Positions 8,625 through 63,277 of a DNA stretch of 64,000 nucleotides are shown here, in pieces. Made by a program: the position numbers and the translations under genes. The stretch lies in contig OZ024740.1 in the NCBI GenBank assembly GCA_964016885.1, positions 376,278,001 to 376,342,000 on the forward strand, read 5' to 3'. Source of the DNA: Eledone cirrhosa (lineage: Eukaryota). How positions within the stretch are numbered: position 1 is the first letter of the stretch; the number at the start of each line of letters is the position of its first letter. The notes beneath the pieces are model-generated. The model saw only the letters and a list, made by a program, of their open reading frames with translations. It had not been told where the DNA came from and did not search any database.

Positions 8625-9940
8625 AGCACTTAGGAATTGAAGCTGTTGACTTCTGGATTACAAAACACCCAGATTACATTTCAGACAGATTCTTCAAAAA
8701 ATGTATTTTGGAAGGACTCAAATTAGTATTGGAGAACAACCACTTTCTTTTTGATAACGAACTGTATTTACAAATAAAATGAACAACCATAGGCACTAAA
8801 ATGGCCCCAACATATGCAACACTCGTTACGGGTCACCTAGAGGCAAAATTACATTCCAAACTGCAGAAAACATTCAGTCTTGAATTCGCCACCTACATTA
8901 ATCACAACTGCAAACGCTACCTAGACGACTGGTTCACCTTTTGGAATAGAAGACAAGAAGACCTGCAAAGGTCCCATTCCATCATAAACAATATTCACGA
9001 AGCAATACAATTTACCATGGAAATGTAATAAAAAGAAACAGCCGTTTCTGGATATCCTTATCATTAAAGAAGGGGAACATATCAAAACCGACTTATTTTA
9101 CAAACCAACAGACACACCAATACTTGAATTTCCGATCAGCACATGCCTCACATACCAAAAGGAACATTCCCTTTAACATGGCAAGACGCATCTGCACCAT
9201 AGTAACACACCCCACACTACAGGAAAAAAGCTTATATGAACTAAAAAGGTTCCTTAAAAGACAAGAATATCCGGTGAACTTCATCAACACGGCCATCTCC
9301 AAAGCCCAGAACATCCCAGTGACAACACCGAGGAAAACAAAGCAACAAAATAAAATAGAAAAAACAGTTATCCCTTTTATCATCACTCACAATCCAAGGA
9401 ACTTCAACATTGTGAAAGCCGCAAAACAATATCTCCCAATTCTCCAGCAGTCCCCCAAAATGAATGCACTCATAAAGGATGCACAAATAATATATAGTAG
9501 ACACCAAGCACCCAACCTAACGAAACTGCTTACCGAGGCAAAATGTACGTCTAATAATGAAGCAATGCAAGTTAAGAAATACGGGGACCCTCGATGCCGG
9601 ACTTGTGAACACATTGAAGAAGGTGGGCAAATCTCCTTTAAAAACAACCAGTTTTTCAGAGTTAATGCAAACATGAATTGGAAAATCAAAAACTTGATTT
9701 ACTGTGCAGCCTGTCCTTGTGTAAAGAATACTACAATGGTGAAACTGGAACGGGTCTACATGACAGAGTTCGAGTACATAAACAACAAATTAGAGATCCC
9801 TCTGTCAGAAACACCACATGCAGTGAACACTTCGCAAGATGCAGAAAGGGAAAATTTACAATTTTCCCCTTCTTTACGAACATTTCCGAAAATATAAAGA
9901 ATTCTTTATTAGAAAGTACAAACCACTACTGAACAGACAA
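8625..9940 (+). pseudogene. PLE RT (C-terminal half) plus GIY-YIG endonuclease, with stops and frameshifts
   Basis: GTKMAPTYA, KRYLDD, FLDILI, HTKRNIPFNMARR, GDPRCRTC, KNLIYC..C..C..YNGETG, CSEHF. Confidence 0.9.
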
Positions 9941-10301
9941 AAAAAAATAATATTCCTTCTTCAAATAATGGGATTCTCCCCCACCCCCACCCCCCTCACT
10001 CTCTATTCTTTAAAAAATCTCATATTGGAAAAGAAAAATATCGAAATAGAAGTTGATGACACCCGCACTTTCAAACATTGGATCGTTGAAGAGAAGAAAA
10101 AAACCTCAGAGGTACACTAATATTTCATTAATTCCCCCTTCCCCACCCCAATGTATATGTGAACTTAAATACTTGAGTGTGTGCAGATGTCTCTGTATGT
10201 ATGTTTATAGGTGGACAGGTATATGTATGTGTGCATGTCTGTGTGTATATATATGAATATATGTGTATGTATGTGCGTATGTGCGTATATATATGTAGGT
10301 G

Positions 10302-29163: not shown

Positions 29164-30666
29164 CTATAGTCTGATGTAGAGTGAAGGCCCATTCACACGG
29201 GCCATTCTCGCCACTTTCACCCATCTTTCATAAAAACGACTGGGGTGCAGCACCTCTCTCTCCATCCTGATCCTTCTTCCGAAATGATATCGGAAGAAAC
29301 GGACCAGTTGTTGGCCAGAGAGAAAGGTGCCTGACCTCAGTCCTTTCAGACGCGTCCACCATACAACCTCTTTCGCCATGGCTATTACGCACAGAAACAC
29401 CGCCTCTGCTTCATCTTTGAAGGGGGGAGGCGGCTTGATCATTACAATAGACTCGGTGGTCAACCGGATCGGTCCCACCCTTGACAGCAGTTGTTCGACA
29501 TAGCCCCACAGATCGGCTACGCCCGAGCAGTGTACCAATGCGTGTGCAACGGTTTCCTCGTCGCACACGCATCTGGGACAGATCTTTTTGGCGGGGTCCC
29601 GACCCGGGCGCCCGTGTCTGTAGAGCCTTTCTCGAACGGGTAAAGCCCCTCGGTAGCACTGCCAGGCCAGGGACTTCTGGAAGTTGTCCATAGGTCCTGG
29701 GCTGAATGTCCTACCGAACAGGCTGGCCAGTTCGTCCTCCTCCATGTCTAGGGCTTCTCCGAGGGCGTCGTCGCACCTGCTGCGTACCAGCCCTCTATAG
29801 AATGTTGCGGTGGAGTCTCCACTGATAACCGGATCCGCCTGCCAGAGGGCGGTGAGCGCCTGGGCACACTCAGTGTGCCAGGCGCCCAGTTTTCTCGGTC
29901 TTTGCTTGACCCAGGATTGCAGCTCGGTGAGTGAGACGAGTCTGGGAAAGGTTCGTCTCACAAACGAGGCCCACACCGGTTGTCCGGTGAGGAATACGTA
30001 GAGGTGCCGTAGCCTTAATGCGTGTTTACGCATCATTAGCCACGGCATCCCCAGCCCTCCTTTCGAAGGATGTTGACAGCAGATGGATCTCCTCACCATA
30101 GGAGCCCGCCTCTTCCAAAGGAATTGGAAGAGCGCGCGCTCCATCTTGGTGAGGGTTTCCCTTGGGCAGGGCACTACGGTCAGGCGGTAGTAGATGACGG
30201 ACGCTATGTAGGTGTTCGCCACTTCCGCCCGACCTTTCAGGGATAGTTTGCAACTGGCCCACTTCTGGGTCAGTGCAAACACCCTGTTCGTAACCTCCGC
30301 CCAGTTTTTCTCCACCTGGAGGTCCGGTCCGAACCAGACCCCGAGCAACTTCACCGGGCCCTCCGTCCAGCGTCCGACGACGCTATCGGAGGGCATCGGT
30401 CTGCCCCTCCACGTGCCGAGTTGCAAACCGATCGACTTGTCCCGGTTCAGCTTAGCCCCTGTGAACCTTTCGTACTCCTCCAGTAAGGTGCCGACCGCCT
30501 CGATTTCGGAGGCCGTCGACACCATTACTGTTACGTCATCGGCGTAGGCCGACACCGCTTTCCGCAATCCCGGTTCCAAGGGGATGCCCTGCAACAACTC
30601 CAACTTCCGCAGTAGTGGCTCGAGAGTCAACACATACAGAAGGGAGGAGAGAGGGCACCCTTGTCG

Positions 30667-31154: not shown

Positions 31155-31192
<38 letters not shown>

Positions 31193-31193
<1 letters not shown>

Positions 31194-32087
31194 AACGGAA
31201 AAAATGAAAAGAAATTTCATTTCCCACTCTTAGTACGGCTGTTACTTAAATATAAGTATGTACACGTACATACATATATGTATACAGACGTACAGTAGTA
31301 TGTATATATATATACATACATGCACACATATATATATATGTACGTATGGATTCACCGAACATTTATTATAATGCTCGGTGTGTTTGTAAACAAACATCCC
31401 CTATTAAGCCGTAGTGTCCAGCAACCATCGTTGCTCGTTTGTTTAACACTGGCAGTGTTCCTTTGTCAGTGTTGAACAAACGAGCAACGATGGTTGCTTG
31501 ACACTACGGCTTAATACGGGATGTTTGTTTACAAACACACCGAGCATTATAATAAATGTTCGGTGAATCCATACGTACATATATATATATATGTGTGCAT
31601 GTATGTATATATATATACATACTACTGTACGTCTGTATACATATATGTATGTACGTGTACATACTTATATTTAAGTAACAGCCGTACTAAGAGTGGGAAA
31701 TGAAATTTCTTTTCATTTTTTCCGTTTATCGTTTTCGGTGCACCCGGCCGATTAACCCACTCGATATGCAAATTGGGCTACTCAGCCGTTAATATGCATA
31801 AGGTAAGTATATACGTTCAACAATCTGGCAGGAAGGTATACGTTGCTGACGATAGCTAATAAGCTTGAAACTAGTACAGCGTTCCTTTGTTAGTGTTGAA
31901 CAAACGAGCAACGATGGTTGCTGGACACTACGGCTTAATACGGGATGTTTGTTTACAAACACACCGAGCATTATAATAAATGTTCGGCGAATCTATACGT
32001 ACATATATATATGTCTGCATGTATGTATATATATATATATACATACCACTGTACGTCTGTATACATATATGTATGTACGTGTACATA

Positions 32088-32090
<3 letters not shown>
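31193..32090 (+). mobile_element. Retrozyme-like family R1: inverted arm (31193-31454) plus 1.5 tandem units, period 424 bp
   Basis: 31453 repeats at 31877; non-coding; HHR at the unit junction; flanked by (TA)n. Confidence 0.85.
31841..31881 (+). ncRNA. Type I minimal HHR (family R1), predicted cleavage after 31876
   Basis: cgttg-CTGACGA-t-agct.aata.agct-t-GAAA-ctag-TA-cagcg. Confidence 0.85.
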
Positions 32091-32156
<66 letters not shown>

Positions 32157-32160
<4 letters not shown>

Positions 32161-33085
32161 TTAATATAGATGAGATTCTACATGACTAGAACTGTTTCAT
32201 TCATTAGAAATCATCAGGAATCTGGGTATCAAAAAATAAATATGGTATTTATAGGTCTCTACAAGTGGTAGGAGAGGGTGGGGAGTGGGATGGGTGCAGA
32301 TCATTGGTTGATAGAAAAGGGGATTCATTAAAAGCTAATTCTACAAAGCTATAGTTTATTTTTATTTTTATTTATATTTATTTATGTGTGTATATGTGTT
32401 TGTGCGTGTGTTTATGGTTGCGCGTAAGTGTGTGAGTGAGTATGTGTGATTTTTTGTTTTTTTGATGTTTTGTTTTTTTGTGAATGTGTCTGTTGATTTT
32501 TGGCATATAGTTGATTAGTTTAAGAGAAGTTCGAAGATAATAGTAAGATATGCACTCAGTATTTTGAATCTGTCTGCAGAATTCTCTAGACCTTTGTCAC
32601 TTAGTAGAACCTTAATGACTTTAGCTTTTAAAGAATCTCCCTTTTCTTTAATTCTATCGACCATGACTGACCCCCCACTGATTTTATAGACACCTGTTAG
32701 CTTAAGAGAAACTTATTGACAAGGAATGGTATGCCATCCGGAACCTGTTTATAGAATTCTGTCTGCCTTTGTTACTCTAAAAACATAAATAAATATAAAT
32801 ATAAATAAAAATAAAAATAAACTATAGCTTTGTAGAATTAGCTTTTAATGAATCCCCTTTTCTATCAACCAATGATCTGCACCCATCCCACTCCCCACCC
32901 TCTCCTACCACTTGTAGAGACCTATAAATACCATATTTATTTTTTGATACCCAGATTCCTGATGATTTCTAATGAATGAAACAGTTCTAGTCCTGTAGAA
33001 TCTCATCTATATTAAAACTGTTATACTCTGCTATGTATTGAGTACCTTACTTACTGTGGTTACCTCCGATTCAACCCGGAATAAC

Positions 33086-33371: not shown

Positions 33372-33499
33372 AGAAAAAATGGCTTCACTTGTGCTTTCAA
33401 CAAATTTATTTTTTTCACAAAATCCAAAAATAATTTTTTTTATATAAATTAAGTTGTTTGTTGTTGGTTAGGTCTTAGGAGTTCTTGGTTAACGTAGGA

Positions 33500-35790
33500 A
33501 CAAACGAGCATTATAATAAATCTCTCACCTGACGAGAAAGAACCAACCGAACCAAAAATAATCAATATATCAGTCAAGAAATTAACACAAACAGAAATAC
33601 AACTGTTAGAAAATCGACTGAAGTTCACTCCCACTCCGAAAGCAGATACAGCCGATGTTATAAAAGACACAGAAGAATACTGTCGAAAATTACGCTTAGG
33701 AGAATTCCTCCAGGGTTTACAATACGAGGAAGAATCACTGGTGAAAAACAAAAAGAACTTCACACCCCCGCTAAATAGAGATAAATACCTGGAGGAGTAC
33801 ATAACCTGCCTTCGCCGATCAGCACGTACACATACGGCCGAGACGAAACACAAACGCAACATCCCTACAGACCAACTACTAGCATTGAACAAGCTACAAA
33901 GGGATTCCTCAATAATAATAAAAGAAGCGGACAAAGGTGAAGCAATCGTCATCATGGACATAAACCACTACAAAGATATGGTTCTAGCACACTTGAATGA
34001 CGAAAAGTTCTACAGGAAAATCACTAAAAACGAAGAAAGGAAATCAAGGAACCAAATAGGCAAACTAACAACAATGTACCAAAACAACCTAACACCAAAA
34101 GAAGTAGATTACCTAACCAACTTCGAAATGAAAACCAGCAACTTCTATGGATTACCAAAAATTCACAAATCCATAGAAATCCAAAACAACATAAAAGGGA
34201 AAAATACATCATACATCGAAGCACCAAGACCGACAGACTTAAAATTACGCCCCATTATTGCTGGCCCAGCCTCAAGCACACAACGTCTAAGCAACCTATT
34301 AGACATCATACTCAAACCCCTATGTAAAAAAGTTCCAAGCTACATCAGAGATGATATGGAATTACTTAACTATATCCCCCAAAAATTACACCAGGATACA
34401 ATCCTAGTCAGTTTTAATGTAATAAGCCTGTACAATAACATCCCACACGACCTAGGGATTGAAGCTGCGGACTTCTGGATTACAAAACACTCAAGTCACA
34501 TTTCAGAAAGATTCCCCAAAGAATTCATCTTGGAAGGACTTAAATTAGTATAGGAAAACAACCACTTCCTCTTTGACAACGAACGTTATCTACAAATAAA
34601 AGGAACAGCCATGGGTACCAAAGTGGCCCCAACATATGCAACGCTCGTTATGGGTCACTTAGAGGCAAACTTATATTCTCAACTACAGATAACATTCAGT
34701 CACGACTTCGCCTTCTACATTAATAAAAACTGGAAACGTTACCTAGATGACTGCTTCATCTTCTGGAACAGAAGCCAAACAGACCTACAAAAATTTTCTT
34801 CAGTCTTAAACAGGCTTCATGAAGCTATACAATTCACTATGGAATGTAACGAAAAGGAACTGCCCTTTCTAGATATCCTCATCATTAAAGAAGGGGAACA
34901 TATCATAACGGACCTATTTTGCAAACCCACTGACACACACCAATACTTAAATTTCCGGTCATTACACCCCTCACATACGAAAAGGAACATTCCCTTCAAC
35001 ATGGCAAGGCGCATCTGCACTATAGCAACACACCCCGTACTACAAGAAAAAAGATTATGTGACCTGAAAAAATTCCTTAAAAAACAAGAATACCCGATGA
35101 AACTCATCAACGCAGCCATCTCCAAGGCTAAGAACATCCCAATAACAACACTGAGAAAACCAAACCCACAACATAAAAAAGAAAACCCTGCTATCTCTTT
35201 TGTCATCACTCACAACCCAGGGAACGTCAACATTGTGAAAACTGCTAAGCAGTATCTCCCGATTCTATAGGAATCTACCAAAATGAATGGACTGTTAAAA
35301 AACACAGATAATTTATAGCAGACGCCAAGCACCCAACATTAAAAAACTAATTACCAAGGCAAAATTTACGACCAACATGGAATCAATGCAAGTGACGAAA
35401 TGCGGGGACCCTAGATGTGGAACCTGTGAACTCATCGAAGAGGGCAAACAGTTGTCCTTCAAAAACCATGATAATTTCAAGGTCAATGCAAACATGAACT
35501 GCAAAACGAAAAACCTAATATATTGCGCAACATGTCCACATTGTAAAGAGTGTTACATTGGGGAAACCGGAACGGGACTACATGATAGAGTCCGGGTACA
35601 TAAACAACAAATTAAAGACCCCACAGTCAGAAATACCACATGTAGCGCACACTTTGCATCATGCGGGAAGGGAAAATTCACAATCTTCCCTTTCTTCAAG
35701 ATATGGTAGGATAACGAACATTTCCGCAGATATAAAGAAGAATTCTTCATTGAAAAATTTAAACCACTACTGAACACGAAAAAATGAATT
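33500..35790 (+). pseudogene. Near full-length PLE RT plus GIY-YIG ORF with a few stops and frameshifts
   Basis: IINLS, KFTPTP, IIKEADKG, FYGLPKIHK, LRPII, SLYNNIP, GTAMGTKVAP, RYLDD, CGDPRCGTC, NLIYCATCPHCKECYIGETG. Confidence 0.95.
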
Positions 35791-36090: not shown

Positions 36091-36249
36091 TATATGTTTA
36101 TATGTGTGTGTATGTATATGTATGTATCTATATATGTGTGTGTGTGTGTATGTATGTGCATATATGTATATATGTGTGTACATATATGTATGTTTCTGTA
36201 TGTGTATATGTATGTATATTTGCAGATGTATATATATATATATATATAT

Positions 36250-37450
36250 AAACAATTAAGTTAAAAATGTACATCTACATATGCATACTAAAATACTAGT
36301 GTGTATATGAATACACACACGTATACATATGTAGGTGTAACAAGTCTTTCACTGGTTGCTTTACTGTGAGCAACCCAGCTATTCTGTATGTAAACACACA
36401 GAGAAACCGGTTTTTAGAGTCATACTGGTTTTCGAGGGAACACCTTCCCTCTATTCTCCAGAAAGCCAGACAAGGAATATTGAACTAGTTTCGTTGTTGT
36501 TACAACTCATCAGCAATATTTACCTATCTAATTTGCATAGAGTGTGAGTACGCACAGGTTCAGCGGAGACGATAAAAACAAATAACGAAACGAAATTAAA
36601 TTTCGTTTCGTTTGTAACTCACTTTTGTATGACTGACGCTTAAACAATTAAGTTAAAAATGTACATCTACATATGCATACTGAAATACTAGTGTATACTA
36701 GTGTATTCTGGAGAATAGAGGGAAGGTGTTCCCCCGAAAACCAGTATGACTCTAAAAACCGGTTTGTCTGTGTGTTTACATACAGAATAGCTGGGTTGCT
36801 CACAGTAAAGCAACCAGTGAAAGACTTGTTACACCTACATATGTATACGTGTGTGTATTCATATACACACTAGTATTTCAGTATGCATATGTAGATGTAC
36901 ATTTTTAACTTAATTGTTTAAGCGTCAGTCATACAAAAGTGAGTTACAAACGAAACGAAATTTAATTTCGTTTCGTTATTTGTTTTTATCGTCTCCGCTG
37001 AACCGGTGCGTACTCACACTCTATGCAAATTAGTCTGCCCACTACTAATTTTCATAGAAAAAGCATATAACGATATGTGCTTTTACAATTCTCCAGAAGG
37101 GCCGGTAGATAGGTAAATATTGCTGATGAGTTGTAACAACAACGAAACTAGTTCAATATTCCTTGTCTGGCTTTCTGGAGAATAGAGGGAAGGTGTTCCC
37201 CCGAAAACCAGTATGACTCTAAAAACCGGTTTGTCTGTGTGTTTACATACAGAATAGCTGGGTTGCTCACAGTAAAGCAACCAGTGAAAGACTTGTTACA
37301 CCTACATATGTATACGTGTGTGTATTCATATACACACTAGTATTTCAGTATGCATATGTAGATGTACATTTTTAACTTAATTGTTTAAGCGTCAGTCATA
37401 CAAAAGTGAGTTACAAACGAAACGAAATTTAATTTCGTTTCGTTATTTGT
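36250..37450 (+). mobile_element. Retrozyme-like family R1b nested in the PLE 3' microsatellite: inverted plus tandem units, period 467 bp
   Basis: 36706 repeats at 37173; 36250-36695 is an inverted, partly deleted tandem. Confidence 0.85.
37116..37160 (+). ncRNA. Canonical-core type I HHR (mirror copy at 36476-36520 on the minus strand)
   Basis: aatattg-CTGATGA-gttgt.aaca.acaac-GAAA-ctag-TT-caatatt; stem I is extendable by ccagaagg/ctttctgg. Confidence 0.9.
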
Positions 37451-37488
<38 letters not shown>

Positions 37489-48485: not shown

Positions 48486-49053
48486 GTTATTCGGGGTGCG
48501 GCGCTTATTCGAACCCTCCCCCAGTGACTGCGATTATTCGGGGTGAGACGCTTATTCGAACCCCCCCCCCGCTTATTCGAACCCTCCCCCCAGTGACTGC
48601 GATTATTCGGGGTGCGGCGCTTATTCGAACCCTCCCCCCAGTGACTGCGGTTATTCGGGGTGCGGCGCTTATTCGAACCCTCCCCCCAGTGACTGCGATT
48701 ATTCGGGGTGCGGCGCTTATTCGAACCCTCCCCCCAGTGACTGCGGTTATTCGGGGTGCGGCGCTTATTCGAACCCTCCCCCAGTGACTGCGATTATTCG
48801 GGGTGAGGCGCTTATTCGAACCCCCCCCCCCCCCCCCCCCACAGTGACTGCGGTTATTCGGGGTGCGGCGCTTATTCGAACCCCCCCCCCCCCCACAGTG
48901 ACTGCGATTATTCGGGGTGAGGCGCTTATTCGAACCCTCCCCCAGTGACTGCTGTTATTTGGGGTGAGGGTCTTATTCGAACCCCCCCTAGTGACTGCGG
49001 TTATTCGGGGTGCGGTGGTTATTTGAACCCCCCCCCCCAGTGACTGCGGTTAT
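48486..49053. repeat. GC-rich minisatellite, ~48-bp unit, about 11-12 copies
   Basis: ttattcggggtgcggcgcttattcgaaccctcccccagtgactgcg repeated. Confidence 0.95.
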
Positions 49054-49379
49054 TTTTTTGAATTTGAATTTTAAATGTTGATACAATGTGGCAGTAAACA
49101 TTAATCATTGAGCTAATTAGGAGCTATTATGTTCTCCTATCTCGCGATAAGTGGTCACACGTTGCAAACTAGTTGAGGTTGTCTTCTATTTATATTCAAA
49201 TGAGTAATCACTCACTGCATTGTTCTCTTTCAAAGCAGTCGCTGATTGATATACTAGAAATTCAGAAAATCATTTGGATTTGTACTAATAGTTGTGAATA
49301 GTTGTGCTATTTTTTGTACCGATAGGTGCGAGTAGTGAACTCATTTGCGATAGGTGCGAATAGTGTGCTCATTTGACAT

Positions 49380-50042
49380 ATGAAAATGACGTCTCTCGGC
49401 TTTTTTATCGGCTTATTTATTTTGACTATTACAAATGAAAAATTTGTTTCCCTGCAAAAGTCTCGCCAAAATGGTCGCAAAAAAAATCGCAAAAGGTCAC
49501 TTCATACGTTTCGCGGCTTTCGAAAAAAGTCACCATATACGTTTCGCGGCTTTTTGATCGGCTTATTACTTTTTTGCCTGGCGCGAAAATGCAATATTTC
49601 CATTTCGAATGAAACAATTCCACAATCGGGCAATTCGAATGATGAAATTCACATTCAGGCGGCTTTTTACAAATCCAATAAACGAATTTACCCGATTTCC
49701 AATCAGAAATATAGAACACGTGCACTGATCTTATCATTGCTTATTATCGGTTGTGTTGAATTAAATCCTGGACCTGAATTTGAATTCAATGAGACTGATA
49801 GTGCTTCCGAATGTCCCAAAGATCAAAAAATTCATAAAGAGAATGAAAAACGGAGAAAAAATGCCATTAGGAATAGGGAGTATAAAAAACGGAAAGCTGC
49901 TGAAATAAAAGAAAAAAGACAATCAGAACAAGCAAAACATATGAATAATGCATACCAAAAAGCGCGTGAAGAAAATACAAAAATCCAAAAAAAATTATCA
50001 TGTGAAAAATTGACAAAAAATCGACAAAAATGGCGTGCGTGA
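49380..50042 (+). CDS. Putative transposon ORF N-terminus with a 2A-like motif and a charged helical region
   Basis: RALILSLLIIGCVELNPGP followed by a Lys/Arg/Glu-rich segment; runs into the tandem repeats. Confidence 0.5.
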   Translation: MKMTSLGFFIGLFILTITNEKFVSLQKSRQNGRKKNRKRSLHTFRGFRKKSPYTFRGFLIGLLLFCLARKCNISISNETIPQSGNSNDEIHIQAAFYKSNKRIYPISNQKYRTRALILSLLIIGCVELNPGPEFEFNETDSASECPKDQKIHKENEKRRKNAIRNREYKKRKAAEIKEKRQSEQAKHMNNAYQKAREENTKIQKKLSCEKLTKNRQKWRA

Positions 50043-50584
50043 AGAAAATCCAAAAATCCAAAAAAAAATTATCATGTGAAAAATTGACAAAAAATCGACA
50101 AAAATGGCGCGCGTGAAAAAAAATCAAAAAAACCCCAAAAAATTTGCATGTGAAAAATTGACAAAAAATCGACCAAAAATGGCGCGCGTGAAAAAAATCC
50201 CAAAAAAATTTGCATGTGAAAATTGATATTTGCCTTCTATTGCATTAGAATTTGTCATGTTTATGAATAATGCATACCAAAAAGCGCGTGAAGAAAATAC
50301 AAAAATACAAAAAAAATTATCATGTGAAAAATTGACAAAAAATCGACAAAAATGGCGTGCGTGAAGAAAATCCAAAAATCCAAAAAAAAATTATCATGTG
50401 AAAAATTGACAAAAAATCGACAAAAATGGCGCGCGTGAAAAAAAATCAAAAAAACCCAAAAAAATTTGCATGTGAAAAATTGACAAAAAATCGACCAAAA
50501 ATGGCGCGCGTGAAAAAAATCCCCAAAAAATTTGCATGTGAAAATTGATATTTGCCTTCTATTGCATTAGAATTTGTCATGTTT
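49942..50584. repeat. ~322-bp tandem duplication built from ~70-bp A-rich subrepeats
   Basis: atgaataatgcatacc...gtcatgttta occurs twice; subunit catgtgaaaaattgacaaaaaatcgac. Confidence 0.9.
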
Positions 50585-51013
50585 AATTAAAATGTTATTT
50601 TCAACTAAATGCAAATGGTGCAAATTTGCTCCATTTAGATTCAGTTGTTAATGCTCACCTACTAATTTAAAAAAATTGTATTTTCTTAAATGACTCTTAT
50701 TTATCATAAGTTAATATTTTTAAGATAGGTGAGTGCTCCACGATCTGACCTATGTCCCCGCCATGTGGAGTGGATGCTTGTACCAATTAGATAAAATATC
50801 TCAACTTATTTCTGTGACTCCAATGCACAGGCTGACACTGTAGCTTGAATTAAATTCAAAATTGGTACAAGTAACTAAGAGGTCACAAAAGAATAGCTTC
50901 ACTTTCACCTATAGTTTTCATTAACATCATTTTTGGGATTTTTTGATAGAAGTAACTAAAGTAATAACTATTTAATTAAGTAGTTGTTGTTTGCATTGCC
51001 TTGAAAAATAGGA

Positions 51014-62620: not shown

Positions 62621-62664
62621 TTGTGTTATCGATAGTGGTATTAGTGTTACTATTTTAATTAATG

Positions 62665-62941
62665 TTTTCGGTACGCCCGTCCGACAGACTCGCTCGATAT
62701 GCAAATTAGGCTGCTCAGCCGTTAATATACATAAGTAAAGTATATACTTTCAAACATTCAATCGAATGACAGGAAGGTCTACGGAGCTGATGACAGCTAA
62801 TAAGCTAGAAACTAGTTCATCGTTCCTTTTTCGGTGTTGAACAAAAGGGCAACGATGGTTGCCAAACACTGTACCGCTAAATTCGGGCTGTTTGTTTACA
62901 AAGAAACCGAACATTATAATAAATGTTCGGTAAACCCATAC

Positions 62942-63030
<89 letters not shown>

Positions 63031-63094
63031 CATCTATGTATGTATATACATACTACTGTATGTCTGTATACATATATGTATGTACGTATACATA

Positions 63095-63100
<6 letters not shown>
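62665..63100 (+). mobile_element. Retrozyme-like family R1 monomer with an HHR at 62782-62822
   Basis: Homologous to 31731-32090; CTGATGA-c-agct.aata.agct-a-GAAA-ctag-TT-catcg. Confidence 0.8.
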
Positions 63101-63128
<28 letters not shown>

Positions 63129-63277
63129 TAGATTTTGAATTTATGTTGGTTGTATACCAACACCTCGGTATGCAGGCTGGAGCACTCGACGAAGTGCGCA
63201 GGTTGGTTTGGTTACTCCGGAGTAGTGTAAAATAAAGTTTAACAAAGTCAAATGATTAAAATTTAGCTTCGTTTATT

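Follow-up and report, generated by a model that had tools for sequence, protein, structure and literature searches.

Head-to-head insertion of a hammerhead retrozyme in Eledone cirrhosa starts at the predicted ribozyme cut and probably records a self-cleaved template

A 64,000-nt stretch of the Eledone cirrhosa genome (positions 376,278,001 to 376,342,000 of contig OZ024740.1, assembly GCA_964016885.1; hereafter the window) contains an insertion composed of 1.5 tandem copies of a 424-nt unit (unit A) and a head-to-head inverted arm within (TA)n, and the tandem part begins directly after the predicted cut of a hammerhead ribozyme motif. We judge it probable that this is a hammerhead retrozyme insertion that was twin-primed at cut (TA)n by an enzyme like the one found in Penelope-like elements (PLEs) and that, in this instance, the 5′ end of its template had been made by ribozyme cleavage. 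The insertion has the following parts:

31453..31876, plus strand: retrozyme unit A, 424 nt, numbered from the predicted cut so that u1 is 31453
31191..31454, minus strand: inverted arm, from u277 back to u12, with an outer end of the "long" fixed type, which includes the tail
31453..32094, plus strand: plus arm, u1-u424 followed by u1-u218, with an outer end of the "short" fixed type
31441..31470, no strand: head-to-head junction, u12-15 joined to u424-u3, a mutated form of a recurrent ACA junction
31671..31729, plus strand: 59-nt "tail", u219-u277, by which the two fixed 3′ ends differ
31191-31249: inverted counterpart of the 59-nt tail
31171..31190, no strand: left (TA)n target tract
32095..32157, no strand: right (TA)n target tract
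31840..31882, plus strand: candidate type I hammerhead motif, predicted cut at 31876/31877 (GUA^C)

That the tandem opens at 31453, with the base that directly follows the predicted cut, head-to-head with an inverted arm with which it shares a CA, had been noticed in a first-pass annotation and holds on re-examination; 9 nt lie between the two arms. Position u4 of this copy is a T, a letter found in 3 of 81 copies, and yields the local palindrome AACACTG-G-CAGTGTT at the junction, so that the first 7 nt of the plus arm may be templated. Taken alone, a single locus that hits one particular position out of 424 is no evidence, because at least 12 such loci exist genome-wide.

The motif at the end of unit A combines a stem I (ACGTTG/CAGCGT), the core CTGACGA (31846-31852), a stem II, GAAA (31867-31870), a palindromic stem III and the triplet GTA directly before the predicted cut, and thereby has every part of a type I hammerhead (CUGANGA, GAAA, NUH, and stems I to III), with a U-U mismatch at the first pair at the base of stem II as a deviation that is fixed in family A, the relatives of unit A. 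Across 430 motif places in the sampled loci of family A and of a second family, B, the pairing of stems I and II is kept by compensatory changes, for example a swap of T-G to G-T in stem I or GTTGT/ACAAC versus GATGT/ACATC in stem II. Searches against Rfam gave no hammerhead match at the gathering score and, for family B only, a sub-threshold match to HH9 (E 3e-7); microRNA matches from the same search were discarded as TA-repeat noise. Single-strand folding of four hammerhead motifs gave no significant z-score, which is expected of motifs that work as dimers, and hammerheads that depend on dimers and are weakly active are described as usual for PLE and retrozyme elements in the accessible text of PMC4209133.

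Both families form tandem arrays throughout the 3.0-Gb genome. The 24-mer that follows the cut in family A (u1-24) has 8,962 exact copies and 4,525 exact matches were counted for a 23-nt anchor (u23-45), while the u1-22 motif of family B is matched 7,258 times. For mapping, we took from family A the 100 matches to this anchor that come first on contig 1 and from family B the first 100 of 362 matches to a young anchor. Unit A has a GC content of 0.37 and a longest ATG-started open reading frame of 71 aa, and at 424 nt it lies within the range of about 150-450 nt and below the 50% GC that characterize retrozymes, while the 467-nt unit of family B is slightly above that length range. No LTR-like layout was seen in the maps of the sampled loci, and unit A has no long open reading frame that could hold the reverse transcriptase (RT) and GIY-YIG endonuclease of an autonomous PLE. 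Metazoan non-LTR retrozymes, as the available parts of the literature describe them, likewise have non-coding, low-GC tandem units of 150-450 nt in thousands of copies, with one type I hammerhead and a short palindromic stem III per unit, and have been proposed to be passengers of PLEs (Cervera and de la Pena 2020, PMC7229834; Li et al., 10.64898/2026.07.22.740005). Cleavage and circular RNA are demonstrated for the published retrozymes in these texts, whereas for unit A the cut is predicted from the genome sequence. By its testable features, the element is a metazoan non-LTR retrozyme that has the insertion layout of endonuclease-bearing PLEs, namely a partial tandem with an adjacent inverted and 5′-truncated copy. 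Older relatives of unit A with 76-81% identity lie at 62664-63134 and at 15.7-16.4 kb of the window, and the one at 62.7 kb retains a hammerhead core at 62787.

The 3′ ends of the copies are sharply fixed at two sites per family, u277 and u218 in A and u303 and u229-234 in B, and TA-rich DNA follows these ends in 74/78 (A) and 61/65 (B) cases. Paired ends of this kind are the tail signature of Penelope. Head-to-head insertions number 43 among 91 arms in family A and 33 among 71 in family B. Divergence is lower within an insertion than between loci (4.1-4.2% versus 5.4% in A; 1.5-2.0% versus 3.2% in B), and 28 family-B variants are common to all segments of an insertion, 6 occur in a subset and 94 are singletons, a segment-wide sharing in line with a circle or with a homogeneous donor array. 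A single template thus underlies the two arms and every tandem unit of an insertion. Family-B arrays of 20-30 units were seen at 5.74 Mb and 30.83 Mb of contig 1 (G000:C1), some of them head-to-head with many units in both arms.

The outer ends of the paired arms follow a simple rule. Wherever both could be classified, a long end in one arm was paired with a short end in its partner in 30/30 insertions of family A and 24/25 of family B (54/55 together; an end was unclassifiable in 13/43 and 8/33 insertions, respectively, and two of the family-A pairs seem to be duplicates). Both ends are short at a control locus (L176). This rule points to twin priming. Either arm can be the longer one, inverted arms are present wherever along the unit the junction falls, and the inner junctions, at which microhomology is enriched, show 0-12 nt of it or short templated inserts. 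In LINE-1 twin priming, both target strands prime cDNA synthesis, and an inverted 5′ segment that is joined via microhomology results. The insertions studied here likely share these features and differ from those of LINE-1 in that both primers would use fixed internal sites and the arms overlap in sequence by hundreds of bases. For a PLE, two internal RT start sites and the tail were shown in vitro, according to the accessible text of PMC11167929. The two arms of such an insertion are therefore likely to represent two cDNAs that started from the two ends of the target and were joined at their 3′ ends.

The first-pass annotation had instead proposed that reverse transcription of an RNA with a self-cleaved 5′ end was followed by fold-back or a template switch. 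In the fold-back model, the cDNA would run off the cleaved 5′ end and copy itself into the inverted arm, and several details of the window locus would suit that model: The inverted arm covers no part of the unit that the plus arm lacks and differs less from unit 1 (4/205 positions) than from unit 2 (11/205), the loop would measure 9 nt, and self-priming has been proposed for palindromic junctions of Penelope (accessible text of PMC3846280). Yet the closer identity would also be explained by later conversion between adjacent arms or by a shared template, and the inverted arm of the window ends exactly at u277 in (TA)n, as all other long ends do. At no fewer than three loci (L326, L360 and L369), moreover, the arm that starts at the cut extends only to u218-221 and its partner, tail included, to u277, and such a partner is not a copy of the cut-site arm because it alone bears the tail. 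Given also that inverted arms sit at junctions all over the unit and that either arm may be the longer one, we consider this full fold-back model very unlikely for the window locus. As a general source of inverted arms, simple fold-back was rejected on the strength of the two fixed outer ends, with one site per arm, and of the tail-bearing partners, so that this part of the original proposal is left without support.

Mapping of 5′ junctions across the family, by which a start made by cleavage was to be recognized as a peak at the cut, gave no such peak. In family A, stops no more than 2 nt from the cut were seen in 0/95 units at risk where 1.7 would be expected, and 0/100 first matches to u1-24 stop within 3 nt upstream of it (the two samples overlap in part); in family B, 0/92 units stop at the cut. 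Partner arms end there in 1/43 (A) and 0/33 (B) insertions. A genome-wide pattern for family-A units that lack both bases before the cut, with a base other than A demanded in front of it, returned 21 matches of which 12 were true junctions, compared to 24 matches with 16 junctions at control position u7 and 13 matches with 7-9 junctions at control position u415 (p about 0.5-0.6). These junctions were curated by eye, whereby one locus (L163) was dropped from 13 script-called at the cut and another (L171) from 17 at u7; 2 of the 9 script-called junctions at u415 are same-strand jumps. The corresponding search in family B gave 7 matches and 4 junctions, two of them identical. A family-wide peak was thus rejected, and the cut is not where most copies begin because the inner ends are scattered in all of these counts, in family A as in family B.

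Among the junctions that do fall on the cut, the partner arm often starts only 10-34 nt further on (3/8 in family A and 2/4 in family B). A second search was designed after this hint and looked genome-wide for tight head-to-head junctions near the ribozyme, with u17-28 in both arms and a gap of 10-40 nt. It found 65 tight junctions, of which 50 were examined; 7/50 were set aside for inserted bases and 43 insert-free ones were kept. For 21/43 of these, the interval of possible start positions that the microhomology allows includes u1, compared to an expectation of 4.3 under a flat model and of 5.6 and 6.7 with microhomology weighting (p 1e-10 to 3e-7), where the null is a model of independent uniform ends and only the region near the ribozyme was searched. 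Counts by position are 3 at u423, 19 at u424, 21 at u1, 17 at u2, 11 at u3 and 4 at u4. Both arms are able to start at or after u1 in 27/43 junctions versus 9-13 expected. When one locus that had been seen before the test is left out, 20/42 junctions remain at u1 (p 1e-6). The 21 cut-site junctions represent 12 junction classes in three subfamily variants, and their flanks, when compared, had no more in common than four short stretches of 76-165 nt. In the most frequent class, which occurs at six loci, u12-15 and u424-u3 are joined via the 3-nt microhomology ACA; the first pattern had missed it because the base before the cut is an A there. The window junction represents this same class with later point changes, in addition to the 6 other loci, and stands outside the set of 43 because its arm carries a mismatch.

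We had at one stage read the coincidence of start and cut as chance alone, a reading that was revised once the microhomology-bearing cut junctions surfaced in the tight-junction search. In its stronger form, chance would be combined with a microhomology bias, such that the window junction is a random truncation and the surroundings of u1 happen to offer favored joints. The overall distribution of junctions is uniform, microhomology is enriched at them, 10/21 cut-site junctions belong to two recurrent types with 3 nt of microhomology, and the palindrome made by the rare T at u4 of the window could be templated. Family B also demonstrates that local sequence alone can create a hotspot. The relevant insertion of the window is this:

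36249..37454, no strand: family-B insertion, 467-nt unit, hammerhead core at 37123, predicted cut at 37153/37154
36706-37454, plus strand: plus arm, starting at u20
36249-36697: rearranged inverted arm

The tandem of this 36.7-kb copy does start 19 nt after the cut (36706 is u20), as had been pointed out; its junction also has a 10-nt templated duplication. The 44 matches for the u20 cluster of family B divide into 25 indel variants within arrays and 19 junctions, 18 of them distinct. The position opens the palindrome TTCT-GG-AGAA, at which a cDNA that ends at u20-23 can snap back and add TA, and the predicted TA is found at 12 of the 18 distinct junctions (p 1e-5), some of which have longer fold-back copies. 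A processed RNA end at u20 was therefore rejected in favor of this snap-back sequence effect, which is no sign of cleavage, and the 36.7-kb copy does not speak for a start made by cleavage. At the family-A cut, by contrast, the excess survives microhomology weighting as well as restriction to junctions with microhomology of 2 nt or less (10/24 at u1 versus 2.1 expected, p 2e-5), and the other eight classes with microhomology of 3 nt or more occur 0-3 times each in the main variant versus 6 times for the class of the window. Coincidence with a microhomology bias is thus a decidedly unlikely account of the window junction.

The excess could also arise by twin priming on uncut RNA if the pile-up at u1 came from a barrier to the enzyme, with the core of the folded ribozyme, a dimer's palindromic stem III or a bound protein as candidates, or from transcription that starts at u1. 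Stem III adjoins u1 on the upstream side and is able to form between two units, and a stop at u424 would also suit 19 of the 21 cut-site junctions. In addition, 10/100 family-A units stop 26-37 nt upstream of the cut, at u388-u399, where 3.6 would be expected (post hoc p 0.004); this zone corresponds to the 5′ strand of stem I and the CUGA box, and its excess of stops suggests that the ribozyme region may affect where copying ends. A helix of 6 AU-rich base pairs would, however, be a weak barrier, most cDNAs read through the cut site, and no position except u1 is contained in every one of the 21 intervals, with u424 outside three of them and u2 outside four. We therefore regard a barrier on uncut RNA or a transcription start as unlikely.

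A few further structures also involve the cut site. In an echo of the family-A excess, two family-B loci share a junction of u1 with u10, and a third (L274:1503-1968) contains u1-233 twice in a row, each time from the cut onward. At L272:1084-1962 and L160, the ribozyme core is affected by deletions that have the cut site as their 3′ edge, and control positions show deletions, too; these two structures and that of L274 may be template jumps from a cleaved end. One insertion (L155/L156, at G000:C2:365.19 Mb) carries a 19-nt insert exactly at the cut, which was present in the template because both arms carry it and which is possibly the trace of a mis-ligated circle. Monomer-only templates were considered for the cut-site class, whose arms cross a ribozyme site in 4/32 cases, compared to 9/38.

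What remains of the proposal that self-cleavage made the RNA 5′ end is thus a rare class of tight junctions that includes the window, and not a property that shows as a peak across the family. The sharp excess of tight junctions and the match of junction class make a cleaved 5′ end likely for a small subset of insertions, and the window locus is likely to be a true footprint of a cleaved template within this rare class. The cut-site subclass amounts to tens of insertions and well under 1% of the more than 8,962 units. Under the reading that we prefer, a cleaved template copied by twin priming, each target 3′-OH would prime reverse transcription at one of the two internal start sites and both cDNAs would extend toward the 5′ end of the RNA. 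The usual template would be a circle or an uncleaved multimer, two forms that the data do not separate, on which the cDNAs would stop randomly, whereas on a rarer, linear template cut by the ribozyme both would reach the end at u1. The two cDNA 3′ ends would then be trimmed and joined via microhomology (ACA/CA in this case), so that one arm would start at u1 and its partner at about u3-u19. Since the plus arm of the window crosses one internal ribozyme site, its template may have been a partly processed dimer, or the enzyme may have jumped between monomers.

Several other elements share the window with these insertions. Directly adjoining the unit-A insertion, a 237-nt inverted repeat (32157-32391 and 32783-33019) has a degenerate hammerhead-like core in each arm (at 32217 on the minus and 32959 on the plus strand) and a relative at 63.5-64.0 kb, and resembles another head-to-head insertion of the PLE type. 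A broken Penelope-like element with RT and GIY-YIG pieces and several stops lies at 33498-35790 on the plus strand, with a second partial copy near 8628-9950; its repeat differs from unit A, and its CX4CX2C linker presumably places it in the Neptune clade. The minus strand of 29400-30666 is a GC-rich fragment that ends in (GATA)n and resembles, by eye, a non-LTR reverse transcriptase gene, and a 48-nt minisatellite and a nested tandem repeat of 74/322 nt are found at 48502-49054 and 49940-50585.

With endonuclease-bearing PLEs, as portrayed in the accessible parts of three papers (PMC8557442, PMC3846280, PMC11167929), the insertions share partial tandems, a truncated arm in inverse orientation, a tail that only one end has, targets that are AT-rich or (TA)n, a repeat with a hammerhead and, likely, two internal RT start sites. 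They differ in that unit A has no open reading frame and in that the tail measures 59 nt (A) or about 70 nt (B) instead of 30-40 nt; set against these partial descriptions, the rule of one long and one short end is counted here. In vitro, cleavage was dispensable for a lizard PLE and no reads started at the cut (accessible text of PMC11167929), whereas here a minority of insertions marks the cut, and a review calls the function of PLE hammerheads unclear (PMC8557442, in the part available). The self-cleaving HDV-like ribozyme of R2 sets the 5′ end of its RNA, and genomic 5′ junctions reflect that cut, with the same link of junctions to a ribozyme and joining via chance microhomology as observed here (PMC3774820, likewise in part). 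R2 nevertheless belongs to another class of retroelements with another ribozyme, and its cut defines the end of the full-length element, whereas most retrozyme copies of this genome read through the cut and a small share stops. For the main texts of the two retrozyme papers, term look-ups returned no account of head-to-head insertions, paired long and short ends or junction mapping: "inverted" occurs 0 times in that of PMC7229834, and "junction" and "tail" occur 0 times in that of 10.64898/2026.07.22.740005. Mapping of junctions to the hammerhead cut of PLEs or retrozymes was not found in print, supplements and subscription papers aside.

More broadly, we give roughly even chances to the view that hammerhead cleavage in the germline has left a base-resolved fossil record in this genome, alongside a fixed rule of insertion, by which a PLE enzyme primes one cDNA per RNA start site from the two target ends, mostly on ligated circular templates and on freshly cut linear ones in less than 1% of events. 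A lone junction at a cut site proves little, as the signal is rare, masked by microhomology and mimicked by snap-back hotspots. The surplus of junctions precisely at the predicted cut indirectly supports the view that hammerheads of the PLE type cut in vivo on RNAs that become inserted, and the rule of one long and one short end offers a concrete and testable origin for the inverted arms of PLE insertions. If this view is true, the share of tight junctions at the cut site would provide a measure of ribozyme activity from genomes only, for any family of PLEs or retrozymes.
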